Source: a virus
Lineage: Duplodnaviria > Heunggongvirae > Uroviricota > Caudoviricetes
Virus record (IMG/VR): IMGVR_UViG_2875722834_000006
DNA: 42,851 nucleotides
Reading direction: 5' to 3' (one strand)
Shown here piece after piece: positions 17,289 to 33,154 of the stretch. Under the pieces are notes generated by a model. The model was not told the DNA's origin. It worked only from the letters and a program-made list of their open reading frames with translations, and ran no database searches. The translations under genes and the position numbers were made by a program. The first letter of the stretch is position 1; every line of letters starts with the position of its first letter.

Positions 17289-18922
17289 TTTTCCTCCGGA
17301 TCGGTAATGGTCTGGCTCGCAAACTGGTCAGCCTGTGCCCAGCTCGGAAGCGGTAATCCGCGTTTAAGACATGACTCAATTTCTCTCTGGCGCTGATCAA
17401 GCACTTCTTCCCAGTCTTCACCGACGTTTTCACCCACCTCAATCTCGAGGGTGGAAAGTCCGGCATCCAGACCAAGAATGGCGCCTTTTTTCTCTGCAAC
17501 CGGATCCACCCAGCCGCGCCCTGGCCCCATCCAGCGCGCGCGAGAATACGCGGCTCTGGCGTCAACAAAATCAGGTGCGCCTGCGGGCAGGGGTAAATCC
17601 TCATTGTCGTGAACTTCTTCAACAAAGGCGGTGAGAATGGGCTGAGCGAAGCCGGTAGAAAAATCGTCCCGGCGGCGAGTCAGTGTTTTCCATGCCTCCA
17701 GCAACGAGGAGCGTGCAGAACTGTAGTTAACGTCAGACCAGTCCTGGGTGACCTGCTGTGGGGACAACCCTGTTCCTGAAGAAAAATTACGGAGAACAGC
17801 AGATTCGAAGACTTCAAAATTGCTGTAGGGCCGCGCCGCGTTAACCGTCGTGATTTTCTCACCAGGATAAAGAATGGGCATTCGGGCACCATTCTGAAGT
17901 GTCAGACGCCGATCGTTATGGAACTCAACACGCCCGTCCTGATAAGTGCCTAACTCCGACTCGTCATAGGTCTCGCCCAGGGCAGACTGAACCATCGCAG
18001 GGTCATAGGGTGACTCAATGTAAGCGGCAAATATGGCATTAAGAATTGCTGCCTCAAGCTCACTCTGGTCATACTTCACCAGCATTTTCAGACGCTGAAT
18101 AACCGGAGTCAGGATGCCGTTACCACGGTGCTGCGCGCCACGCTCATGATCAAAATCGTGAACCACATGCGGGCGGCCCCAGTCAGTTTCACGCGGGATA
18201 CGCTGCCACGTCATGGTTTTAGCCCCGCTCCACCAGTCACCGATATGGGCCTCCCTGATGTGGTAAGCAACCGGCGCACCGTCCGCATCAATTTCAACGC
18301 CACCACGGACATTTGGCATATCGAAATTCTGCTGAGGATTACTGAGGCGGTCAGGATCGACAATCTGTACCGTGGTGGCGTAACGCCCTCTTCCGGGACC
18401 AAGCCTGTCAGTTCTGTACTGGAGAATGGCCAGAGCATCCCCGTCAATAAGCTTGTGACGAAATCCCAGGCGTAACATCTGCGACACGGTGAGTTTTCGT
18501 TCAACATCACAATACCGGCCAGGATCGTTACTCCAGGTCCGCCAGTGCCCGTCCAGTGCTTTTCCGTACTCTTCCGCCCAGGACGCATCAAACGCCTTGT
18601 TTCCGGTGATCATTCTGAGAACACGGTAATCGGGTTTCATGATGGGGCGGAAGTTGGCACCAACCGCATTATCCAGCAGACGTGTGACCGCACCGTTTGC
18701 CCAGCCGTCATTACGGACCAGATCGCGTGCGCGGGACACGATGCGATCCCGGTAAATGTTAATTTCATTGTCCGGGGACCACAGCGCGGGTTGCCAGTTC
18801 GCCAGTTGATCGCTGAAAGAGTCAGCTGCGTCATAAGGTACGCGGCTCCCCCCCACCAGCATAGAGGGACGCTGCTGTCGCAACGGCTGCCCATCAGAGC
18901 CCAGTATCTGTACTTTATTCAT
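17285..18922 (-). CDS. Portal protein (lambda gpB-like)
   Basis: 545-aa ORF between W-like and protease genes; size and order. Confidence 0.85.
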   Translation of the reverse strand: MNKVQILGSDGQPLRQQRPSMLVGGSRVPYDAADSFSDQLANWQPALWSPDNEINIYRDRIVSRARDLVRNDGWANGAVTRLLDNAVGANFRPIMKPDYRVLRMITGNKAFDASWAEEYGKALDGHWRTWSNDPGRYCDVERKLTVSQMLRLGFRHKLIDGDALAILQYRTDRLGPGRGRYATTVQIVDPDRLSNPQQNFDMPNVRGGVEIDADGAPVAYHIREAHIGDWWSGAKTMTWQRIPRETDWGRPHVVHDFDHERGAQHRGNGILTPVIQRLKMLVKYDQSELEAAILNAIFAAYIESPYDPAMVQSALGETYDESELGTYQDGRVEFHNDRRLTLQNGARMPILYPGEKITTVNAARPYSNFEVFESAVLRNFSSGTGLSPQQVTQDWSDVNYSSARSSLLEAWKTLTRRRDDFSTGFAQPILTAFVEEVHDNEDLPLPAGAPDFVDARAAYSRARWMGPGRGWVDPVAEKKGAILGLDAGLSTLEIEVGENVGEDWEEVLDQRQREIESCLKRGLPLPSWAQADQFASQTITDPEEK

Positions 18923-19185
18923 CAGAATCTAAACCTCGCTGGTTTCCGGGGACGAGAGATAATCCCCAGTTGCGCCTGCAGAAGTTGAATCAGGGCCAGC
19001 AGATCAGCCAGGGTGCTTTGCTGATAGGACACTGATCGCGTCCCGTCTCCCTGCGTATAGGAAAACGAAACACCGTGGCTCCCGGTTGCTAAATCAATGT
19101 ACGCCTGCTGAGCTTTCGCAAGCGCATCCCTGAGCTGATCGTCAGTCATTGCGCCGGCAAGCAGGCTGGTGTTCCGGTTGAACAT
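18922..19185 (-). CDS. Head-tail joining protein gpW-like
   Basis: Small ORF between terminase large subunit and portal, AAGGA RBS before ATG at 19185. Confidence 0.65.
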   Translation of the reverse strand: MFNRNTSLLAGAMTDDQLRDALAKAQQAYIDLATGSHGVSFSYTQGDGTRSVSYQQSTLADLLALIQLLQAQLGIISRPRKPARFRF

Positions 19186-19193
19186 GATTTTCC

Positions 19194-21323
19194 TTATTTC
19201 GGCAGGAGTTGCGATATTCGCTTACGTTTGACCGGCGCTGGTTCTTCAATAACCGCACCCGGCAGCTCGTAATTGATTTTTTCTTCCTGTCCAACTGGCG
19301 CTGGCAGGAACTTATCCGGATCGGCTTCGAGGTTGGCGGCCCGGACGTTGAGTTTTAACCCCATATGTTTGAGACCGCACAGCGCGGCATAGCTGTAAAC
19401 GAGGCAGTCAAGCGCTTCGTTAGCTCGTCCTGGTATTGCTTCCCAGATACTGTACCGCTGCCCGGAAATGACTTTGTAAACCAGTCGCTCCGCCAGCAGC
19501 TGATTGAAGTACCCGAGATCGCGATCGTCAGGAAAATGCATATAACCCGCAGCGGCGGCGCCAGGTTTGGGTGGCTCAAGATGCAGGCGACCGCGTATCA
19601 CGTCTTTCGCTGAGTTAACCCCCAGAATGACAGGGCGGAAACTGGCTTTGCTTTTCGATGATGGTCGTTTGGTCGGCCAGACAGGATTGCGTTTACCTCC
19701 CTGTGCAGACTCCCCCTTAATTGCCCAGACACGACGGCCAAGACGCTCTTTGGCGAATTCGTATACCTTCTGCGTATGGTGGCCACCGGAGTCCATGCAC
19801 GTTGCCATGATATTCAGGCCGCGCCCGTCACCACGTCGCCAGATCTGTTTCAGGTATGCATCCAGTCGCTTCCAGGGTTCTTCCGTCTCAAGGTCACCAT
19901 AAATAACGTCATGCGCGACCGACCACGATTCTTCATCTCTCCCCCAGCCGGTGATCGTAATTTCGAAGCGATCGTCCTGGGTATCAACTCCAGCTGTTAA
20001 CAATGCCACCCCGTCCGGAACGACGGCCGGAAATATTTCCCGGCGCGCCAGCAGAACATCAACAGGGAGCTGTTTCCCATGATTAGGTCGGTGCGGAAGC
20101 CCCATCTGGGTATTCCACCACGCCTGTTCCTTATCCGGATCGCCCTTCGCATCGATATATTTTTTCGCAATATCCGACGGCTTATCTTTTTGCCAGGGGC
20201 TGAAAAGCTTGGATGCCTGGTACCCCGCGTGGTGGTTATCGACTGCCTCCTTTCCACAGGAGGGGCAGATTGCGCGATAGACCGCATGCCGTTCCGACTC
20301 TGACCATTGCCAGACCTTTTCAACGCTGCCCTCGTCTGCCGCCCGCCAGGCAAGGTCATAATCCATCAGCGGTGAGTGCCGCTCCCCGCAGCACTCAAAT
20401 GGGCGCGTCTGATGCCATCGAATAGTTTGCAGAGCTCTGAGGCGCTGTCCTTCGGACCAGCCACTACCACAGCATTCGCAATAGAGCATCGCCGATTTAG
20501 TCAGGTGTTTATCTCCCTCTTTCGGCCACTGAACGTGTTTGAAAAAGTCGGGGAACTGGCGGTGGCCACAGTGCGGGCAAACCACAGATGCCCGGCGCTG
20601 ATCGGAGTCGGCGTAGCTGTCAGCAATGCGGCTCTCATCCTCCACCGTCGGCGAACAGGCGCGTACAGACAGCCAGGTCAGGCCAAATGTCGCTGTACGC
20701 TCTTCGGCCAGCGCAATTGGATCGCCTTCGCGGGTTATCGGGTACTTGTCCACTTCATCCGCCAGCAGGACACGAATCGGACGACGCGCAAGGTTATCAG
20801 GGCTACCAGCACCCGCCAGCGCCAGAAATCCGCCAGTGAACGCCTTGTAAAGAATGGTTTCTTTCGAGCTTTTCTGTTTCGAATCACCGATGATTTTACG
20901 CAGTACCGGCGTCACCCTTACCAGCGGGCTAATACGCTCTTTCGAAAACTGTTCAGCGGCTTCTTCTTTCGGCTGCAGCAGCAGTATCGGACAAGGATCG
21001 AGGTGGGCAAAATAGCCAAAAAGGTTTTCCAGCAGTGCTGTCTTCATCAACTGGGTACAGCACATTACAGTGATGATATGAACCCCGGACTCCGTCGCGG
21101 CAAGCATCGGTCCGCGGGCAATTTCTACCGTCGATGTTTCCCAGTTTCCCGAAGTGCTCCCAGCCTCTTTTGCCAGCTTACGATAGTCATCTGCCCACTG
21201 CGGCACACTGATACGCGGCGGGGGTGTCCAGCCTTTGCGGACGCTTAATTCAAGACGCTCAATCTTCTGCCGGGTTAAACTCTGGCTCTCCGAGGACTGA
21301 GATGTGTTTGTGGACATGTTCAA
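19194..21323 (-). CDS. Terminase large subunit (lambda gpA-like)
   Basis: 709-aa ORF directly downstream of small subunit, conserved cysteine-rich middle region and ATPase/nuclease size. Confidence 0.9.
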   Translation of the reverse strand: MNMSTNTSQSSESQSLTRQKIERLELSVRKGWTPPPRISVPQWADDYRKLAKEAGSTSGNWETSTVEIARGPMLAATESGVHIITVMCCTQLMKTALLENLFGYFAHLDPCPILLLQPKEEAAEQFSKERISPLVRVTPVLRKIIGDSKQKSSKETILYKAFTGGFLALAGAGSPDNLARRPIRVLLADEVDKYPITREGDPIALAEERTATFGLTWLSVRACSPTVEDESRIADSYADSDQRRASVVCPHCGHRQFPDFFKHVQWPKEGDKHLTKSAMLYCECCGSGWSEGQRLRALQTIRWHQTRPFECCGERHSPLMDYDLAWRAADEGSVEKVWQWSESERHAVYRAICPSCGKEAVDNHHAGYQASKLFSPWQKDKPSDIAKKYIDAKGDPDKEQAWWNTQMGLPHRPNHGKQLPVDVLLARREIFPAVVPDGVALLTAGVDTQDDRFEITITGWGRDEESWSVAHDVIYGDLETEEPWKRLDAYLKQIWRRGDGRGLNIMATCMDSGGHHTQKVYEFAKERLGRRVWAIKGESAQGGKRNPVWPTKRPSSKSKASFRPVILGVNSAKDVIRGRLHLEPPKPGAAAAGYMHFPDDRDLGYFNQLLAERLVYKVISGQRYSIWEAIPGRANEALDCLVYSYAALCGLKHMGLKLNVRAANLEADPDKFLPAPVGQEEKINYELPGAVIEEPAPVKRKRISQLLPK

Positions 21324-21828
21324 TCAGCACCTCTGTCATCCTGTCCGCCGGTACATCCAGATCAGCAGCCATTAGCGGCGCCACCCTGGACGGCCAGTTA
21401 AGCCAGGCATCACGCTGTTGGCGAAAGGCGTTGAATAAAACCTCCTCGGCTGCTGTCAGCTCAATAAGCTGGCCGCTGTCTTTTTCATACTGCAGCTTTG
21501 CCTGCAGGGCCATGTAATTCTCGCGGATACGTCCCGCTTCCTCTCTCGAAAGATCTGCCCCTTCAGTGAGCATTATCTGGCGGACAGTTTTATTGATTTC
21601 ATCACCGTCATCATCGTTATCGCTAACGACGGGAGTTTTCTTTTTCTTCGCGTTCGAGGCGCGCGGGTCTTTGCCATCGCGGTTTTTCTTCAATGCCGCA
21701 TCGCTGGCCTCTACGTCAATCAGGTCTCCGTCCATCACAATGAAGCGCCCGGCTTTAATCCACCGACCAATTGTTTTGCGATCCACACCTGAATGTTGTG
21801 CGTACTGACTCTGGTTCATCGTGGTCAT
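21259..21828 (-). CDS. Terminase small subunit (Nu1-like, N-terminal winged HTH)
   Basis: 189-aa ORF overlapping start of large subunit, N-terminal DNA-binding-like segment, adjacent to repeat array. Confidence 0.7.
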   Translation of the reverse strand: MTTMNQSQYAQHSGVDRKTIGRWIKAGRFIVMDGDLIDVEASDAALKKNRDGKDPRASNAKKKKTPVVSDNDDDGDEINKTVRQIMLTEGADLSREEAGRIRENYMALQAKLQYEKDSGQLIELTAAEEVLFNAFRQQRDAWLNWPSRVAPLMAADLDVPADRMTEVLIEHVHKHISVLGEPEFNPAED

Positions 21829-21976
21829 GGGACATCACCTGGGACATTTTCTGGGGTGGGACATTCGCCTGGGACATTTTTGCCATGTCCCACCAGAATG
21901 TCCCACTGGAATAAACTGGAATAGCCAGAGCTGGCGAGGTGTCCGTAATGATCGCCAGAGGTGGGACATGGGACAC
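21829..21976. promoter_or_regulatory. cosB-like array: 8 copies of GGGACAT(T) in direct and inverted orientation immediately upstream of Nu1-like gene
   Basis: GGGACAT at 21829, 21841, 21858, 21871, 21963, 21970 and inverted ATGTCCCAC at 21885 and 21898. Confidence 0.6.
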
Positions 21977-22067
21977 AAATCTGAAAGTTGTAGCTAGGAA
22001 AACACCGCGGCGCGCAATGCCCGTGCCTTACAAAAGGCTCAGGAAGGACCCAAAACCCCTGGGGGGG

Positions 22068-22721
22068 CTATCTGGCCGAGCTGATCGCCTCAGCAATCGC
22101 CTGGTGCAGCGCTGAGGGTAACAATGCGTTGGCCATGGTGTTTGCCCTGTCCATATAGCCGAGCGTTGGTTTGACTGGAAGCGCGTCTCCAAACCGAATA
22201 AGCAATTTTGGTGCAGGTTGCTTAATCTTGTCTCTGCGCGTGCCGTTCGGAGAACGTTTTGCCCGTTTCTTCCCTTTTTTGGTTTTCGGCTTTTTTCTCT
22301 GCCACACGGCATTCACGCCACCAACGTCACCAATAAATACGTTTGGCTTTGCTTTGAGCTGAGAGAGCTTATTACGCGGCAGGTTGCCGTATTTATTAAG
22401 CTTTATGTCTTTCGGGTTAAGCAAAGCACCACCATTAAGCTTGTGCGCTCCGCCGAACTCGAAGGGTTCAAGGTAGCCAGCAGCAGTATCACGAACAAAC
22501 ACCTTCGCACGAAGGCTGTTTTTCCTGGCACCAACTGACCCTACCGATTTAACTGTAAAAGGTGTTGGATTATCCAGATTCTGCTCAAATGCTGTTTTTT
22601 GGGCCGCTTCTATCTGGCGAACCACTTTAGTCATAGCCTGGGCAGTCGCAAACGGTATTTGCTTCTGCAGCTGTCTTAACTGACTGGAAAGGTCCTTAAG
22701 CGTTGCCATATCATTGACCAC
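22068..22721 (-). CDS. Hypothetical protein (217 aa) with Lys/Arg-rich segment
   Basis: ORF with AGGTGG RBS; located between lysis cassette and cos; no family recognised. Confidence 0.5.
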   Translation of the reverse strand: MVNDMATLKDLSSQLRQLQKQIPFATAQAMTKVVRQIEAAQKTAFEQNLDNPTPFTVKSVGSVGARKNSLRAKVFVRDTAAGYLEPFEFGGAHKLNGGALLNPKDIKLNKYGNLPRNKLSQLKAKPNVFIGDVGGVNAVWQRKKPKTKKGKKRAKRSPNGTRRDKIKQPAPKLLIRFGDALPVKPTLGYMDRANTMANALLPSALHQAIAEAISSAR

Positions 22722-22761
22722 CTAGTTACAGTAATTAAGATCAGTTTGCTCATAAAGTTGA

Positions 22762-22786
22762 CAATAAAAAACCGCCCGTAGGCGGT
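22762..22786 (-). terminator. Intrinsic terminator (ACCGCC-CGTA-GGCGGT plus U-tract on minus strand)
   Basis: Stem 22771-22776/22781-22786 followed by T-run on minus strand, overlapping stop of 22786..23190. Confidence 0.6.
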
Positions 22787-23190
22787 TAGTCGAACATTTT
22801 ATCAAGTTGCTTAGCAAGAGCTCGGTTAAACAGCTCCTTCGAAACTGTCATCAGCGTGCCCATACTGGCATCTTTGAATCCGGTTTTTAATGTTGCCCAA
22901 ACCTCTTTGTTACGGAGAGCATCCAAGAAGTCATGCCCCATCGCGGTCAATCGCAAGGGCATTACAGCCCAGTGAGTCATTCCGTCTAAAGACTGAATAG
23001 CACCAAAGCCGGGCTCTCCATCACTCCTGATAATCAGCCCTCTATCCTCAAGCAAACGCATATGAAACACAAATGTGTCAGTTTCACAATTGAACCCTAA
23101 ATCATTTAATCGAATAATATCGGTATCAGGTGAATCCGATGCCTCGAAAGCCTCGAGCAAACCTTTAAGGTATTCTTGATCTATTTGCAT
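22786..23190 (-). CDS. Hypothetical protein (134 aa), low-GC cargo-like gene (possibly DUF2513-like)
   Basis: ORF with about 37-40% GC in sampled stretch versus about 55-60% in structural genes; own terminator. Confidence 0.5.
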   Translation of the reverse strand: MQIDQEYLKGLLEAFEASDSPDTDIIRLNDLGFNCETDTFVFHMRLLEDRGLIIRSDGEPGFGAIQSLDGMTHWAVMPLRLTAMGHDFLDALRNKEVWATLKTGFKDASMGTLMTVSKELFNRALAKQLDKMFD

Positions 23191-23222
23191 AACCCCTCCG
23201 TATGTAAAAGGTTAATTTAACA

Positions 23223-23684
23223 TCAATTTAAGCACTGCTCTTTGATGTATTCCTGCAAATATCCAACCTGTTTCGTCACTGTGACGATTCGCTCTCTGAG
23301 GGTGAAATAATCCCGTTCAGCGGAGTCAGTAAGTCGGGGGCCGGTAACATCGCCCAGGCCGCCGGTGCTGGTCGCTCCGTTCGCGGGACATCTGGCGTTG
23401 ACGTGCAGCCCACACTTGCCAGTGCGAACACAACGCTGCAAATCATCAAGCTGCTTTTTAGCATCAGCTAAGTCCTTCGTGTATTTGGCATCCAGCACCG
23501 CTGCATCACGCTGGCGGATCTGCATGTCTTTGATGGTGGCGTTCGCCTGGCTAAGATTCTTAATGGCTTTATCGCGCTGGTCTTTGTAGGTGATGGCGTT
23601 GCCGCGGTAGTGGTTAATCGCCCAGGCCATGGAAACCATCAGGCAGATAACGACAGCACAGATGATTGCTGTTAATCGGCTCAC
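23223..23684 (-). CDS. Rz: i-spanin Rz
   Basis: Aligns by eye with lambda Rz ([32 protein letters not shown]); GTG start at 23684 giving MSRLTAII. Confidence 0.8.
23276..23464 (-). CDS. Rz1: o-spanin Rz1 (lipoprotein) embedded in Rz in alternate frame
   Basis: Lipobox ASVGC, proline-rich, [11 protein letters not shown] identical to lambda Rz1 motif. Confidence 0.8.
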
Positions 23685-24220
23685 TAATCTAACCCCCAAC
23701 ACGCCAGCGCGCTTTCCTGGTCCCGTCTCTCAACCTGACCATAGCAGCCATTCTTCTGGCCTTTGGTTAGTCGGCAATCGCGGCCACCGTCTTTGATCCA
23801 CCAGCGGATTGCTTCACATGCCCCTTTACGATCACCGGCGTTGATGCGTTTATAAAAGGTAGAAGGGAAGCATTTACCAGGACCAATGTTGTACGGGCAA
23901 AATGAGGCAATCCCCGCTTTCTGCGGTTCGGTCAGTGGTACCTGGATATTGCGGTCGACCCAAGCCAGCGCCTTGTTCAGCTCGCTGGCGTTCACCTGAT
24001 TACATTTCTCTGGCGATAGCCTCATACCTGGTGTAACAGGCTTGCCGTCAACCGTGGTAGCTCCCCGGCAAATCGTCCAGATGCCGCTGCCATCTTTGTA
24101 CGCTGTAAGGCTGTTTCCCTCTTTCTCATTCAGAAACTGATCGAGAATGACGGATGCTGGCGCACCAGCAAGTACCAACCCCAGAACAGCAGCACTTAAT
24201 TTTGCTCTGGATCCCATCAC
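23684..24220 (-). CDS. Endolysin, lysozyme-type with N-terminal signal-anchor-release (SAR) segment
   Basis: Hydrophobic Gly/Ala-rich N-terminus followed by [20 protein letters not shown] catalytic motif. Confidence 0.8.
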
Positions 24221-24587: not shown

Positions 24588-25640
24588 TTATTCCCCTGTT
24601 AACGCCCTTATTTCCCCCACCGTCTGGCTAAACCTGTCCTTCTCGAGTTCAACGCCGATAGCCTGGCGGCCAAGTTCCAGCGCGATTTTCACGGTCGAAC
24701 CGGACCCCATAAAGAAATCAGCCACCACATCACCAGGCTTACTGCTGGCGTTGATGATCTGCCGCAACATGTCAGCGGGTTTTTCGCATGGGTGTTTACC
24801 TGGGTAAAACTGAACGGGTTTATGTGTCCAGACGTCGGTATAAGGAACGGATACGGAAACAGAGAAATGCCGCCGAAGCGATTTGTACTCTTCGAGCAGC
24901 TCTGAATACTTGCGATTTAACGAATGCCACATAGCCACCAGCTGGTGGTGTGGTGTTGCCAGTTCGCCGTTCTGGTGCTTTTCGATGGCTACCTGCGTGA
25001 AAAGGGACTGAAGCTTCCGGTAGTCTGATTCATTCGGTAATTGCCACTGGCTACCGCTGAACCAGTGAGACACCATGTTCTTCTTTCCAGTCGCATCGGC
25101 TATTTGTTTTGAGGTTATGCCAAGCGCTTCACGTGCATCCCGGAAATAAGAAATTAGGGGAGTCATTACATGCTGCTTCAGCTCGCTTCCCTTCTCAGCG
25201 TACCCGTCGCTCTTTGGTTTATACGGCCCCTGGTAATGCTCAGCGAACAGGATGCGCTCTGTTGCAGGGAAGTAAGAGCGCAGGCTCTCTTTATTACAGC
25301 CATTCCAGCGGCCCGACGGTTTAGCCCAGATGATGTGGTTCAGGACGTTGAACCGCTCACGCATCATGATCTCAATGTCTGCCGCCAGACGGTGACCTGA
25401 GAAAAGATAAAGACTGCCGGCAGGTTTAAGCACTCGCCAGAATTGTGCGAGGCACATATCAAGCCAGCGAAGATAATCCTCATCCCCTTTCCATTGATTG
25501 TCCCAGCCGTTGGGTTTCACTTTGAAGTACGGCGGATCCGTGACTATCAGGTCAATGAAGTTATCAGGGAGAGTTGCGATGTATTGCAGGCTATCAGCGT
25601 TGACTAACTCAACACTGTTTATATTTACAGTATTTTTCAT
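24588..25640 (-). CDS. DNA N6-adenine (or N4-cytosine) methyltransferase, beta class
   Basis: DPPY motif near N-terminus (VTDPPYF) and AdoMet motif FxGxG near C-terminus (DFFMGSGST). Confidence 0.8.
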   Translation of the reverse strand: MKNTVNINSVELVNADSLQYIATLPDNFIDLIVTDPPYFKVKPNGWDNQWKGDEDYLRWLDMCLAQFWRVLKPAGSLYLFSGHRLAADIEIMMRERFNVLNHIIWAKPSGRWNGCNKESLRSYFPATERILFAEHYQGPYKPKSDGYAEKGSELKQHVMTPLISYFRDAREALGITSKQIADATGKKNMVSHWFSGSQWQLPNESDYRKLQSLFTQVAIEKHQNGELATPHHQLVAMWHSLNRKYSELLEEYKSLRRHFSVSVSVPYTDVWTHKPVQFYPGKHPCEKPADMLRQIINASSKPGDVVADFFMGSGSTVKIALELGRQAIGVELEKDRFSQTVGEIRALTGE

Positions 25641-25810
25641 AGATCCGTAAGCGTAACTCTGATAGGCTCACTATGCTTTTGCGCTAAAGCAGTGGGCCTT
25701 GGTTAGCTTGTGACCTGTAAGCATGAGCTGATGGTTGGTCGGGTGCTACAACACCCACCAGCCGCCCATTCCACAGCAAAACTCCTCCATATTGAAGGAA
25801 CGAAGGCGTA

Positions 25811-25850
25811 AAAAAGCCCTGATTTTCAGGTCAGGGCATTTTTAATAAAA
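25811..25850 (-). terminator. Intrinsic terminator hairpin (GCCCTGA...TCAGGGC) with T/A runs on both sides
   Basis: Stem 25816-25822/25831-25837; minus-strand U-tract directly after stop of 25859..26758. Confidence 0.6.
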
Positions 25851-25858
25851 TCTGAAAT

Positions 25859-26758
25859 TTACGCGTTTCCAGGAGGGACATGCCAGACTCTTCGGCCATC
25901 CTCATGGTTCTCGATAATCTTGGCTGCTGTACTGCCACCAAAAGTGTGCATATAGCTATGATGTATCGTTAACACAATATCTTGTAATGCCTGATCTGCT
26001 TCCATCGGTATGATTTTCAAACCAATTTGGCTAGCTTTATCACTGTGAATATGACGTGCATGAGCAAAAGTTGAACTGTGGTTATTCAGGCTTGAACAAA
26101 TAGCTTCAGCCTTTTGCTGGGCATCTGGATCCCCATCAAACATACCAGTAATTAGCCATTCACTGACAATTGTTGTTGCCCATTGGATTGCCTTTTCACA
26201 CTCACCAATGAACGTCGGATTGAGTTTAGACAGTGTAAATTGCCAATACGCAGCAGTCGCAGGGTTTTTAATAATATCTTGCATAGCCTTCTGCGCTTCT
26301 TCAATCACGCCATGTGCTGGCACGCCACCGATTTGGGGATCGAAAGGACCGATATTTGATTGTTTCCCCATGATGATTTCTTTTGCACAACAAGCCAACA
26401 TAGTCCCTGCTGACATAGATATCATGGGGACAAAAGCACGGATATCGTTACCGAACTTAGCTCTCAAGTAATAACCTATCGATTCTAAGGCGGCGATATC
26501 CCCACCAGGTGTATGCAAAATGAGATCAAGCCCCTTCGTGGCATCGAGCCCATGAACCGCTGTCATGAATCCATTTTTATCATCATCAGACATAGTGCAT
26601 AAATGCGAGCTATTCTGAAGGAACCCCGAGTAGTACGCAATGACGTTACGTCCGGTCATCTGCGACATCTCTTTGATATATTTGCTTCTTACTGTGTCTA
26701 GGGGGCTTTTTTGGGCGAGGACTGCAACCTCGCCCATAACATGATTCCAATTAGGCAT
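25859..26758 (-). CDS. Clp-fold serine peptidase (SDH / S49-S14-like family), cargo gene
   Basis: LILHTPGGDIAA and MISMSAGTMLA motifs resemble ClpP/SppA fold; low GC; separate from head protease. Confidence 0.55.
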   Translation of the reverse strand: MPNWNHVMGEVAVLAQKSPLDTVRSKYIKEMSQMTGRNVIAYYSGFLQNSSHLCTMSDDDKNGFMTAVHGLDATKGLDLILHTPGGDIAALESIGYYLRAKFGNDIRAFVPMISMSAGTMLACCAKEIIMGKQSNIGPFDPQIGGVPAHGVIEEAQKAMQDIIKNPATAAYWQFTLSKLNPTFIGECEKAIQWATTIVSEWLITGMFDGDPDAQQKAEAICSSLNNHSSTFAHARHIHSDKASQIGLKIIPMEADQALQDIVLTIHHSYMHTFGGSTAAKIIENHEDGRRVWHVPPGNA

Positions 26759-26772
26759 TGTTCATCTTATTG

Positions 26773-26982
26773 TTAGTATGAATACAGTTGGTACGATGCA
26801 TTTCCTTGTTGATTGTAATCAACATTTTCCAGGTGAGAACCTGTCGAATAAATCACACCTTTTTGCCCAGAACCAACTGATGAGGTACTCATTACTCTGC
26901 GACCAAAATCAGTTGCTGTTTCGTTTGGCAAAAATTCTGCGGGGGTGATACCAAAATCGTCATAAAGCTGGTTTATGTTCAT
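26773..26982 (-). CDS. Small hypothetical protein (69 aa), translationally adjacent to peptidase
   Basis: ATG at 26982 with GGAGAG RBS; 14-nt gap to peptidase start; low GC. Confidence 0.4.
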   Translation of the reverse strand: MNINQLYDDFGITPAEFLPNETATDFGRRVMSTSSVGSGQKGVIYSTGSHLENVDYNQQGNASYQLYSY

Positions 26983-27064
26983 GGCTGCGCTCTCCAACAA
27001 ACTACATGTAGTAAAAAAACAACTTCGGCACACAACATGTAGATTTCACTAAGGGATAGATACG

Positions 27065-29889: not shown

Positions 29890-31827
29890 TCAGGCGGCTG
29901 CACCCGCCTTTTGATTTGCACATAATTCAGGAAGATTTGCTTCTACCAGCGCACGAGCGAACGGCGGCGGTACTGCGTTACCACAGCGCGCTACCTGCTT
30001 GTCTTTGGCGTAACGATTGCCGCGATAGTCCTGATCGATAACGTAGCCGTCAGGGAAGCCCTGCGCCTTATAAAGCTCATGCGGTTGCAGCATGCGCATT
30101 CCGATATCGACGATCTGGTACTTAACCCCCTCGATCGTCACCAGCCATTCATCCTCGCTATCACCGCAGTAGGTTTCGAGGAATGTCCGGACCTCGCCAA
30201 CGTGCTGGCCACCAGCGGTAATCGTCGGCATAGGTGTATCCATGGTCTGACCGTCGCGGCAGGTTCCGCGCAGCTTCACCAGGTGCGACGCAACTACCGC
30301 GTGGTGATCAACAGTAGTGACTGAGTGGGCAGGCTCATCCATACCAACACCCGGCCCCGTGTAATTCCCACCATAGTGCTTCGCCAGGAACGCGCTCACC
30401 GTTGCAAACTTATTACCACCAGCAGTGACCGTGCCGAGCGGGTTATTCAGTTGAAGAACACGCGGTTCTTGCCCTGGGCGTTCGCCGTACCCCATCTGGA
30501 TCAGTGTTGGAGTTACCAGCTGCGACTTACCGCCACCACCTGCAGTAATCGTCGCACTCGGTTCGTCAGCCCTGTGCCCAACACTGGCTCCAAACTGGCG
30601 GGCGATGACCGGCGCAACCACGCACGCGCGGGACTGCTTGAGGATTGTATGAGCGGGTTTATCCAGCGGGCGCGGCTTTGCCTGGTACTCACTGCCGCCA
30701 TTGCCAGCCAGGAACGGTGTCAGGGCGGCCTCAACTACGCCAAGCGCATGCCCATTCCCGCCCGGGCGCGCCGACGTACCAGCGGTGACAGTTGGTACCG
30801 GCTCGGTCACTGGCTGCCCGGTGGCCCCGGTGCGGAATTTAGTAAGATGCGGTACCGCCAGTGCGTAGCCATGCTTTTTAGTGATGGTCTGCAATGGCTC
30901 TAACAACGATTGCCCGCGGAAACAGTCATAACCTCCTTTCGTCGTGGTGTGGTTACACTTCACGATGAAAGGTGATGCGCTTTCGATAACAAAGCGCTGG
31001 ATGCCGCGCGCGATACGTTTGAGCGTATTTTCCGCCAGCGGCTTTTTGCGGTCGAAGATGGACCGGGCCGGGATATTCCAGTCAATGCACTCCGCCGCGG
31101 TACGCCATGGCGCCAGCTTGCCGCTTTGTACTTCCAGTGATTTTGGATCCCCATGAGTCGCTTCAGGCCAATGAATCTTGCGGCCGTCACAGCGCATGAC
31201 CATGAAGAAACGCTTTCTGATCGTCGGCGCGCCGTAGTCACATGCGCGCAGCTCCCGATAATCAACCTCATAACCAAGCCCGGCGATCAGCTGTTGCGCC
31301 TGCTGGCCGTGCGGCTCAATGGCAAGGAATTCACAAACCTCAGCCAGCGCAGGGTGATTCGCCGCGATCCCCGTCGACAGCATGCCGACAAATGCCTCGA
31401 ATGTTTCGCCAGCACGCTCAGGATCTGGGCGTAATTCTTCATCCAGCAGCGGGCCCCATGTCTTAAACTCTTCGACGTTCTCCAGCATCATGACGCGGGG
31501 ACGTACTGCCAGCGCCCAGCGCAGGACAATCCACGCCAGCCCGCGAATCTCTTTCTTAACCGGCTTAGCGCCCTTCGCCTTGGAAAAGTGGCGGCAGTCA
31601 GGGCTAAACCAGGCCAGACCGACAGGTTTACCGCTGGTGGCTGCGCTTGGGTCAACGTCAAACACCGACTCGCAATAATGCAGCGTGTCAGGGTGATTCG
31701 TCTTATGCATCGCAATAGCGTTTTCGTCGTGGTTGATAGCGATATCCACGCTACGCCCGATCGCCAGTTCAATGCCGGTACTCGCGCCGCCGCCACCAGC
31801 AAAGTTATCAACGATAATTTCACGCAT
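29890..31827 (-). CDS. DNA (cytosine-5)-methyltransferase with extended, internally repeated variable region
   Basis: Motif I FAGGGG, PC motif (SPDCRHFS), ENV (MLENVEEF), motif VIII (YGAPTIRKRFFMV), motif X (GNAVPPP); four T(I/V)TAGG-containing modules between VIII and IX. Confidence 0.85.
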   Translation of the reverse strand: MREIIVDNFAGGGGASTGIELAIGRSVDIAINHDENAIAMHKTNHPDTLHYCESVFDVDPSAATSGKPVGLAWFSPDCRHFSKAKGAKPVKKEIRGLAWIVLRWALAVRPRVMMLENVEEFKTWGPLLDEELRPDPERAGETFEAFVGMLSTGIAANHPALAEVCEFLAIEPHGQQAQQLIAGLGYEVDYRELRACDYGAPTIRKRFFMVMRCDGRKIHWPEATHGDPKSLEVQSGKLAPWRTAAECIDWNIPARSIFDRKKPLAENTLKRIARGIQRFVIESASPFIVKCNHTTTKGGYDCFRGQSLLEPLQTITKKHGYALAVPHLTKFRTGATGQPVTEPVPTVTAGTSARPGGNGHALGVVEAALTPFLAGNGGSEYQAKPRPLDKPAHTILKQSRACVVAPVIARQFGASVGHRADEPSATITAGGGGKSQLVTPTLIQMGYGERPGQEPRVLQLNNPLGTVTAGGNKFATVSAFLAKHYGGNYTGPGVGMDEPAHSVTTVDHHAVVASHLVKLRGTCRDGQTMDTPMPTITAGGQHVGEVRTFLETYCGDSEDEWLVTIEGVKYQIVDIGMRMLQPHELYKAQGFPDGYVIDQDYRGNRYAKDKQVARCGNAVPPPFARALVEANLPELCANQKAGAAA

Positions 31828-33154
31828 TGACGGCCCCCTGCATGCTGTTGAAGAGACCACCAGCGGTCGTGATAATTTCACTCGTCGGCATACGTTCGAG
31901 CCACAGCTGGTTGATATTGGCTTTCAGCTTGTTCTGCTGCGAAACAGGTAGAGCGTCAGCCCCTTCAATCTGGTTAAACACCAGTCCAACCTCAAGAGGC
32001 CAAACGCGCGATTCGTTTAACGCCTTGTCCTTTGATTCCTGCGTCTCACGGACATGGGCGCGGATCCCCCGAATATTTGACCATTTGGCTTTATCCAGGC
32101 TTTCCATGGTCGCGATGAATTCACTGTGGTTAATGCCGTATTCTTTCGCAGACTCAACGGCAACCGTGCGTAACCGCTCTGACATGTCTTGTTTCACGTC
32201 ATCGCTATCAAAGGGCAATGTTTCCAGCCATGCATTAACACCCACCAGGATGCTCTCGCTGATCAGCTTTTTCGCTCTGTCGATCGTCAGCGGTGAAACA
32301 TTGGTAAATTCAGGGTTTTCCAGAGAGTCGGCAGCCCAGGTATGACCAAACTTTGACTCGCTGAAGGTGTACTCGTCTTTCTTGCCGAACGCCGCGACAA
32401 CACAGGCCCAAGCCTCTACACCGCTGGTTTCCAGAATGGCTTTTTGGGTTAATGGCAGTTCTGCCTCTGATTTCTCCGGCACTACCTCAGCGTCCAGCTC
32501 CGGCGCCGCATCAGTTTGCGTTCTTCCCACGGCAAATTGGGCCAGCGACATCGCAGCACGGCCTTTGGCCTCCAGGTCGGTGCGGTTGATGTAACTGAAA
32601 CGCTCACCCCGCCATGTTTTGTCGAAGACCACGATAGCGCCAGCAAAAAATGCGCTGGTGGGCTGCTGCTTTTCGTCTTTCGGCACGAACCATGTAGGAA
32701 GATCGAAACCAATTCGGCCACGGATGAATGTGACGTGATCTGCCTCTACCGGCCACCACGTTTCACTCGTCGCAGACTTAATGAGAAAAACGTACCGACC
32801 ACCCTTTTCTCGCATGGCCATAGCGTGGTTAATGATGTGGGTCATTCCGGTAACGGCCTGCTTGTCGTGGTACTGAGAGCGGCTGTAAGGCGGGTTGCCA
32901 AACCCGGCACCACCGAGTTCTGCCAGCCGCTCTGACCAATCCTGCATCAGGGCATTATCTTCAGCCGTGTACCATGCTGGGCACTTCGCGTTGCTGTCGT
33001 CGGCAAAAAGGTCCAACACCAGAGGGCCGAACATCGCATTGATCCCCCAAAACAACAGATCCGGAGTGCGCCATTGATCACCGACCTCTTTCAACTCGTG
33101 TGCTGGTTTTGAACGGAGTTCAGCCAGTGCACGGCAGTATTTATTTTCCATCAT
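31820..33154 (-). CDS. Phage-type DNA N6-adenine methyltransferase (Dam family) with about 250-aa C-terminal extension of unknown function
   Basis: N-terminal DQWRTPDLLF and NPPYS motifs characteristic of phage Dam family; long uncharacterised C-terminal half. Confidence 0.7.
   Translation of the reverse strand: MMENKYCRALAELRSKPAHELKEVGDQWRTPDLLFWGINAMFGPLVLDLFADDSNAKCPAWYTAEDNALMQDWSERLAELGGAGFGNPPYSRSQYHDKQAVTGMTHIINHAMAMREKGGRYVFLIKSATSETWWPVEADHVTFIRGRIGFDLPTWFVPKDEKQQPTSAFFAGAIVVFDKTWRGERFSYINRTDLEAKGRAAMSLAQFAVGRTQTDAAPELDAEVVPEKSEAELPLTQKAILETSGVEAWACVVAAFGKKDEYTFSESKFGHTWAADSLENPEFTNVSPLTIDRAKKLISESILVGVNAWLETLPFDSDDVKQDMSERLRTVAVESAKEYGINHSEFIATMESLDKAKWSNIRGIRAHVRETQESKDKALNESRVWPLEVGLVFNQIEGADALPVSQQNKLKANINQLWLERMPTSEIITTAGGLFNSMQGAVNA

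Follow-up and report, generated by a model that had tools for sequence, protein, structure and literature searches.

What occupies the interval between the last lysis gene and the cohesive-end site of a prophage with lambda-like packaging genes, and does it belong to the virion or travel as cargo? This question is raised by a 42,851-nt stretch of Caudoviricetes DNA (IMG/VR record IMGVR_UViG_2875722834_000006; the window hereafter, meaning this whole stretch), in which two open reading frames (ORFs), here called ORF134 and ORF213 after the lengths of their products, lie between Rz and cos. A first-pass annotation, made from the sequence alone, had described them as uncharacterised genes in a known cargo location. 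Both the placement and the character of the interval hold, with a PF03245 match identifying Rz on one side, cosN mapped at 22009-22020 on the other, and differing inserts found here in related prophages. We consider it likely that the interval comprises two unrelated units, a tail completion protein gene (ORF213) and a DUF2513 moron (ORF134), both of which are ordinary, already known kinds of phage gene.

The window is an Escherichia coli prophage near-identical to NZ_CM174221 (1317766-1359866). Its packaging and head genes are lambda-like, comprising a Nu1-type small terminase subunit (terS), a GpA-type large terminase subunit (terL), gpW, a portal protein, an S49 protease, a decoration protein, and a capsid protein, and its tail is of the contractile, Mu-like type. 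On the minus strand, the gene order runs from a DNA methylase (24588-25640) through holin, lysozyme, Rz/Rz1, ORF134, a terminator, and ORF213 to cos, terS, and terL (coordinates in Table 1).

ORF213 is most likely a tail completion protein, the product of a core morphogenesis gene in an unusual place. Its best PHROGs match was phrog_1924, annotated as minor tail protein (E = 1.5e-60), accompanied by a weak match to phrog_27, tail completion or Neck1 (E = 0.005). The Pfam family of the lambda gpZ protein, Minor_tail_Z (PF06763), was reached through relatives of ORF213, being matched by 21 of 127 representatives of the ORF213 family (best E = 2.4e-7), and the homologue gp49 of Dinoroseobacter phage R4C scored E = 0.013. 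Comparison of the ORF213-family profile with lambda Z using hhalign gave E = 1.7e-4 and aligned equivalent N-terminal positions; with a shallow alignment set against the single lambda Z and HK97 gp10 sequences, the method was uninformative, and a deeper profile was needed. The family itself is very large, amounting to 7,742 cluster representatives in a full HMMER scan of clusters at 50% identity (E <= 0.001).

The predicted structure agrees with this assignment. A confident AlphaFold2 model of ORF213, computed from an alignment of 62 diverse homologues (predicted local distance difference test, pLDDT, 86.6), opens with an N-terminal helix of 40 residues and closes with a long C-terminal one, between which lie a beta-rich middle and the Lys/Arg loop, the latter poorly ordered; it thus displays the arrangement that marks the tail-completion fold, i.e., a long bent N-terminal helix, a loop or beta-hairpin region, and a long C-terminal helix. 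Searching the PDB sequences with the family profiles returned no match, and it was the comparison of folds alone that led to the class of HK97 gp10 and 80alpha gp51.

Published work on the 80alpha neck equates gp51 with lambda gpZ, HK97 gp10, and SPP1 gp16.1, notes an extra beta domain in lambda gpZ relative to gp51, and shows gp51 as a single copy in the neck channel, where it closes off the packaged DNA at its end and pairs with the tape measure protein in a beta-sheet (PMC11661146). By analogy, ORF213 would be a component of the virion neck, touching both the DNA end and the tape measure protein (gene at 8566-10494), and its strongly basic character (isoelectric point, pI, 10.8; net charge +27) would fit a DNA-facing role. 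As ORF213 has no detectable promoter of its own, we infer that its expression in lytic growth comes from the Q-antiterminated late transcript, which would read through the terminator just upstream of ORF213, continue across cos, and enter terS and terL.

Several observations on the sequence weigh against this assignment. ORF213 itself reaches no Pfam or NCBIfam model, with no PF06763 or PF04883 match at E < 0.1, and its family membership by sequence is therefore indirect; the sequence links between ORF213 and gpZ are transitive and weak.

The gene model needed one correction. The ORF at 22068..22721 is real, whereas the GTG start at 22721 proposed in the first-pass annotation is not retained, given it sits within the AGGTGG motif. 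That motif is a Shine-Dalgarno sequence, lying 8 nt ahead of an ATG at 22709, and since the Prokaryotic Genome Annotation Pipeline (PGAP) call and the start of every homologue fall on this ATG, it is the likely start, giving a product of 213 aa. The guanine-plus-cytosine (GC) content of ORF213 is normal (49.5% vs. 51.4% for the window). A promoter-like sequence had also been ascribed to this gene; a consensus scan found no coding-strand site upstream of it, all four matches within 21700-23800 being on the opposite strand, and it is instead the DUF2513 gene that has the promoter-like signal ahead of it. The scan matches near 22685-22741 and 23090-23118, antisense only, were regarded as chance occurrences in AT-rich DNA.

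The Lys/Arg-rich segment that had been pointed out in the product is present at residues 138-168, with a pLDDT of about 61 in the residue blocks 141-160 of the model. As the homologues in Rhodobacter and Dinoroseobacter phages (alphaproteobacterial) lack it, the loop is a lineage-specific insertion, and for the same reason we rejected the segment as a defining functional motif of the ORF213 family.

These data bear directly on whether both genes could be lysogenic-conversion cargo, with ORF213 serving as a nucleic-acid-binding accessory through its Lys/Arg segment. The interval is a known cargo slot, the Lys/Arg-rich segment is real, and ORF213 carries no Pfam or NCBIfam name, all of which would suit such a proposal. 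However, ORF213 is found in essentially all relatives of the prophage at a fixed place beside terS, has normal GC, shows the fold and family of a structural protein, lacks a promoter or terminator of its own, and keeps its Lys/Arg segment as a dispensable insertion. The synteny and fold data already contradict the proposal, which we hold to be highly improbable. The first-pass annotation had itself named matches to conserved morphogenesis families together with normal GC as the outcome that would speak against cargo. ORF213 shows both, through its phrog_1924 match, its HK97 gp10/80alpha gp51 fold, its Minor_tail_Z relatives, and its composition, and its description as cargo was thus abandoned.

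Read as a tail completion protein, ORF213 stands in a setting that is remarkably constant on its packaging side. The order ORF213 homologue, (cos), Nu1-type terS, GpA terL, gpW, and lambda-type portal was present in 70 of the 72 IMG/VR loci with enough sequence, and the same order occurs in the Citrobacter phage phiNP, the Acetobacter phage phiAP1, and a Ralstonia phage. In the Serratia phage BZS1, the Rhodobacter phage RcCronus, and R4C, which share this order, the homologue is the last or nearly the last gene of the linear genome, and all five divergent prophage loci inspected carried an ORF213 homologue followed by a 100-150 nt gap, Phage_Nu1, GpA, a small gene, and Phage_portal_2. This packaging-side synteny spans phages of Gamma-, Beta-, and Alphaproteobacteria, whereas the genes upstream of the homologues vary (lysis genes, primases, Q, integrase).

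This same constancy counts against a simple tail assignment. ORF213 stays with the packaging and head module whether the tail is of siphovirus or myovirus type, which is unexpected for a protein named after the tail, and its gene is located upstream of cos and terS, not in the slot bounded by the head-closure gene on one side and the tail terminator or major tail genes on the other. Given the constant linkage across tail types, ORF213 could have a gpZ-like fold and yet form part of the cos-packaging and head module, as a protein of the DNA end and connector lumen that is loaded from the head side after the terminase cuts cos. The strict association with Nu1-type terS, GpA terL, gpW, and lambda-type portal against a background of varying tail types and upstream genes, the distance of just 47 nt from the end of ORF213 to cosN, and the net charge of the protein are all in keeping with this. 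So is the finding that most of the buried surface of 80alpha gp51 faces the head-tail connector, the authors having been unable to determine when gp51 is added (PMC11661146). Nevertheless, genetic linkage is no proof of an assembly pathway, lambda gpZ is classically joined to tails (cited in PMC11661146), and 80alpha gp51 shares a beta-sheet with the tape measure protein. On balance we regard head-side loading as unlikely. The gpZ-like family may nonetheless be a cohesive-end capping protein of the Nu1/GpA packaging module rather than of the tail, and the position of ORF213, fixed beside cos and this terminase irrespective of tail type, is relevant to the stage at which a tail completion protein enters the neck and to the side of its entry.

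The position of cosN rests on an experimentally determined junction. BZS1 has a 12-nt 5' overhang, GCATTGCGCGCC, found with PhageTerm and confirmed by polymerase chain reaction and sequencing (PMC7556043), and on the minus strand of the window CTTTTGTAAGGCACGG, GCATTGCGCGCC, and GCG follow one another directly and are identical at 30 of 31 nt to the joined ends of BZS1, which places cosN at 22009-22020. Of 74 related loci, 72 carry the 12-mer without a mismatch, and on the packaged chromosome no gene follows ORF213. Between ORF213 and cosN lies a conserved right-end block in a cosQ-like position (Table 1).

On the other side of cosN, all exact copies of TGGGACAT in the window are confined to an array ahead of the terS start codon. 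Relatives whose terS is at least 70% identical carry 6-8 copies, while those with terS about 60% identical have none, though they keep terL (88-92%) and the cosN 12-mer; the three such loci shown carry GGTAACA repeats in place of TGGGACAT, as does BZS1. The array probably represents cosB-like binding sites of terS, and given its covariation with terS, the difference looks like a swap of cosB/terS specificity.

Two virion studies of phages with ORF213 homologues are relevant to the proposed role, and neither reports the protein. Mass spectrometry of BZS1 virions identified 13 proteins without p72, which is 72% identical to ORF213 (PMC7556043), and the electron cryomicroscopy (cryo-EM) study of R4C names 12 structural proteins without gp49, its neck map being symmetrised and at 6.6 A (PMC10276861). 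The BZS1 analysis was not sensitive, since the portal, gpW, and the FII-like protein were also missed, and neither data set is sensitive to a single-copy protein of the lumen. The supplements of the R4C and marine-phage proteomics papers likewise contained nothing on the gp49 homologue.

We also looked within the neck cluster of the window for a competing candidate. Scans of gpW (gene at 18922-19185), the FII-like protein (13533-13892), the 126-aa and 181-aa proteins, and the DUF2635 protein gave no match to a gpZ or HK97 gp10 model. The 181-aa gene (12991-13536) was considered as the real tail completion gene and dropped, as it showed no profile similarity to the ORF213 family and no Pfam match. 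This gene, the sole occupant of the canonical tail-completion slot and located between the FII-like gene and DUF2635/sheath, belongs to phrog_6774, which has no named family, and its BZS1 homologue p11 is a virion protein by mass spectrometry (PMC7556043); by position, it is probably the tail terminator.

Inserts were also noted on either side of the ORF213 homologue in relatives. About half of them (L034 7637-8443 and about 40 similar IMG/VR loci) have an extra 560 bp between the homologue and cos, encoding on the reverse strand a protein of 178 aa whose N-terminus resembles a signal sequence. This segment is a second cargo slot on the opposite side of the tail completion gene. In a further relative (L107 4433-5021), an insertion of ~590 bp lies exactly between the DUF2513 terminator and the ORF213 Shine-Dalgarno sequence, homology with the window stopping at 22759 and restarting at 22723, which marks a further insertion point.

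The other gene of the interval, ORF134, exists exactly as the first-pass annotation described it, and the suggestion that its product is a DUF2513 protein proved correct. Pfam DUF2513 (PF10711) matched with E = 2.5e-10 and a score of 41.1 bits (gathering threshold 29.6), residues 5-110 corresponding to positions 4-99 of the 100-position model. Homologues are almost all ~134 aa and conserved from residue 1. In NZ_CM174221, PGAP calls a 91-aa product, which we considered as evidence for a better start and rejected, given that this genome carries a nonsense allele (Glu16 to stop, window position 23145; L001 21446) and the short call results from that mutation. A frameshifted DUF2513 gene was present in one IMG/VR prophage (2671180804_000003, fetched as L015 and L128), and the two kinds of inactive allele together indicate that the gene is dispensable for prophage maintenance. 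Among the PADLOC defence-system models, ORF134 had no match and ORF213 no more than a chance-level one (E = 0.036), and DUF2513 was not mentioned in the literature searched.

The composition of ORF134 is moderately low in GC, at 44.0% (44.4% at third codon positions) against 51.4% for the window, corresponding to the 6.7th percentile of 405-nt windows. The figure of about 37% given earlier is right for the 5'-most 150 nt (23041-23190) and not for the whole gene, and the wording of a strongly reduced GC was therefore overstated.

ORF134 is flanked by a promoter-like motif and a terminator of its own. An extended -10 motif, TGTTAAATT, stands directly past the Rz stop codon, and a motif of the form TGnTAnnnT (mostly TGCTAAATT or TGTTAAATT) begins 31-48 nt before the DUF2513 start in 41 of 50 distinct loci, where chance would predict 0.016 per stretch scanned. 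G-rich runs resembling Shine-Dalgarno sequences were seen, though not counted, at the equivalent place in most homologous loci. The terminator that had been reported at the end of the gene is real, its RNA folding at -13.9 kcal/mol (z = -2.9), and a hairpin with a T-run follows the DUF2513 gene in 45 of 53 distinct homologous loci, with differing stem sequences. DNA homology with other phage backgrounds is limited to the segment from about 23191-23236 through 22756-22766, ending right past the terminator.

The unit also shows the behaviour of a mobile cassette. Only 15 of the 78 relatives of the prophage carry the DUF2513 gene, and across 79 viral loci its upstream neighbours vary (Rz, lysozyme, unknown genes), as do those downstream, which include an HNH endonuclease (15 loci), the tail completion gene (15), terS of three PHROG families (16), and a glycosyltransferase (5). 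In phage Chlobot, it is found near exo, xis, and int. Patchy presence, unrelated backgrounds, atypical composition, and a terminator of its own are thus all seen in ORF134, and as the promoter motif, Shine-Dalgarno sequence, gene, and terminator travel together, the cassette fits the definition of a moron. The predicted promoter would allow expression from the prophage, and the terminator would keep that transcript out of the morphogenesis genes. Our best guess, drawing on the predicted fold, is that ORF134 may be a small factor, regulatory or protein-binding, from which the lysogen gains, and not a component of the virion or of lysis.

Some features of the locus count against this role. ORF134 lies on the strand of the late operon and may simply be a late gene, and its promoter is a motif match with no -35 element. 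An ordinary late gene that is silent in the lysogen, for example a helper in packaging or late regulation, with a motif and terminator that are incidental or serve the late operon, would further account for its late-operon orientation, its place just 32 nt past Rz, and for the packaging-side downstream neighbour (HNH endonuclease, terS, or tail completion gene) in 46 of 79 loci. Set against this are the restriction of the gene to a minority of relatives, its inactivation by nonsense or frameshift mutation in some of them, its place beside exo, xis, and int in Chlobot, and the movement of the promoter motif and terminator with the gene across unrelated phages; accordingly, we give a late-gene role little credence.

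The acidity of the protein raises a separate difficulty, since it speaks against ordinary DNA binding. ORF134 has a pI of 4.77 and a net charge of -8 (family median pI 5.2), and its putative recognition helix carries a net charge of -2, so that ordinary DNA binding is doubtful for a protein otherwise modelled with a winged helix. A classical autoregulated DNA-binding transcription factor of the MarR/PadR kind, acting on host or phage genes, draws some support from a 17-bp imperfect inverted repeat, GGCATTCACTGAGTGCC, found ~10 nt upstream of the extended -10 motif in many DUF2513 cassettes of other phages, about where a -35 element would lie. The repeat may serve as an operator or form an RNA hairpin. 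It is, however, missing from the DUF2513 copy in the window, and together with the charge of the protein and of its recognition helix, this leaves such a factor doubtful.

Alternatively, ORF134 could be a new kind of prophage-expressed effector and no transcription factor at all, made from its own promoter in lysogens and binding a basic DNA-handling protein. Its target could be a host nuclease or else, in competing phages, the small terminase or the HNH packaging proteins. While such an effector would fit the repeated insertion of the cassette right before packaging modules of at least five unrelated types, we think it quite unlikely. Returning to the moron assignment, a candidate transcription unit of promoter, gene, and terminator is now defined for this domain of unknown function.

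Table 1. Features of the Rz-cos interval and its borders, with loci sharing the upstream repeat of DUF2513 cassettes (window positions unless loci are named).
Feature	Position	Strand	Evidence or note
Rz spanin, final lysis gene, upstream of the ORF134 cassette	23223..23702	-	PF03245, E = 7e-38
Extended -10 promoter motif TGTTAAATT, directly past the Rz stop codon and 32 nt ahead of the ORF134 ATG	23214..23222	-	motif match
Shine-Dalgarno GGAGGGG for ORF134	23193..23199	-	sequence; strong
ORF134, DUF2513 protein, predicted winged-helix fold, acidic, 134 aa, accessory gene	22786..23190	-	
Intrinsic terminator of the ORF134 cassette, overlapping the stop codon	22760..22787	-	stem AACCGCC/GGCGGTT 22787..22770, 4-nt loop, T-run
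Shine-Dalgarno AGGTGG for ATG 22709, 8-nt spacing	22718..22723	-	sequence, PGAP start, homologue N-termini
ORF213, predicted tail completion protein (lambda gpZ / HK97 gp10 / 80alpha gp51 class), 213 aa	22068..22709	-	
Lys/Arg-rich loop of ORF213, residues 138-168	22206..22298	-	low-confidence, probably flexible
Conserved right-end block between ORF213 and cosN, cosQ-like position	22021..22052	-	TGGGTCCTTCC and CTTTTGTAAGGCACGG common to BZS1 and IMG/VR relatives
cosN, 12-nt cohesive-end sequence GCATTGCGCGCC, 47 nt past the ORF213 stop codon	22009..22020	-	BZS1 match
TGGGACAT repeat array, between cosN and the terS start codon, 7 exact copies and 1 near copy	21828..21976	.	both orientations
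terS, terminase small subunit, first gene past cos	21259..21828	-	phrog_57, E = 4.6e-36
Loci with GGCATTCACTGAGTGCC, about 45-60 nt upstream of the DUF2513 start	L114, L117, L118, L129-L135, L141-L147, L152, L156, L158, L164, L165, L169, L170		

Elsewhere in the window, a low-GC stretch (40-46%) was noted at 25800-27000, between the Q region and the DNA methylase. It contains a small hypothetical gene and a 299-aa gene annotated as an SDH family Clp fold serine proteinase (25859-26758, GC 44.7%), the product of which had no match in PADLOC, and the stretch probably represents a further cargo region. Three DNA methyltransferase genes are present in the prophage, one immediately ahead of the holin gene (24588-25640) and two in the early region (29890-31881 and 31820-33154), the latter pair comprising one cytosine and one N6-adenine type.

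Compared with known systems, neither gene alters how its kind is understood. Three points are of mild interest: a gpZ-like gene stands displaced and next to cos, its unannotated family is large, and the DUF2513 cassette is well defined. The assignment allows a very large phage family, whose members carry the label hypothetical protein in the E. coli records listed, to be interpreted as gpZ-like tail completion proteins, and this reading supplies the missing neck component in prophages with lambda heads and Mu tails as well as in Cronusvirus siphophages.

ORF213 resembles lambda gpZ in length (213 vs. 192 aa), in an N-terminal helix with a similar Pro-x-Ala-x-Ala...Asn pattern, in the matching of some family members by the gpZ Pfam model, and in its layout of helix, beta-domain, and helix, which agrees with the gpZ model in the 80alpha study (PMC11661146). 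Unlike gpZ, the protein in the window falls below every Pfam threshold and has a Lys/Arg-rich loop. In lambda, the Z gene is flanked by FII and U within the neck and tail cluster, whereas the ORF213 gene precedes cos at the opposite end of the virion DNA, in a phage with a contractile Mu-like tail. With 80alpha gp51 and HK97 gp10 (PDB 9mu2 chain P; PF04883), ORF213 shares the weak phrog_27 match and a basic character consistent with contact with the DNA end, but it is roughly double their length and carries a flexible loop and an extra beta domain, lacks a PF04883 match, and is 11% identical in sequence. In addition, the 80alpha and HK97 genes are situated between the head-closure and tail-terminator genes.

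ORF134 is likened by its model to the winged-helix regulators MarR, PadR, and TubR, with a three-helix bundle and beta wing followed by C-terminal helices; it falls outside their sequence families, however, and is predicted to be net negative even in its putative DNA-reading helix. The closest parallels in gene organisation are the morons HK97 gp15 and lambda bor. The product of lambda bor is a lipoprotein, unlike that of ORF134, which is predicted to be cytoplasmic, acidic, and winged-helix. The HK97 record annotates gp15 as a moron product followed by a putative terminator, and the ORF134 cassette likewise joins its own promoter motif, a gene, and an intrinsic terminator between late genes, with a GC content below that of its surroundings and a patchy presence among relatives.

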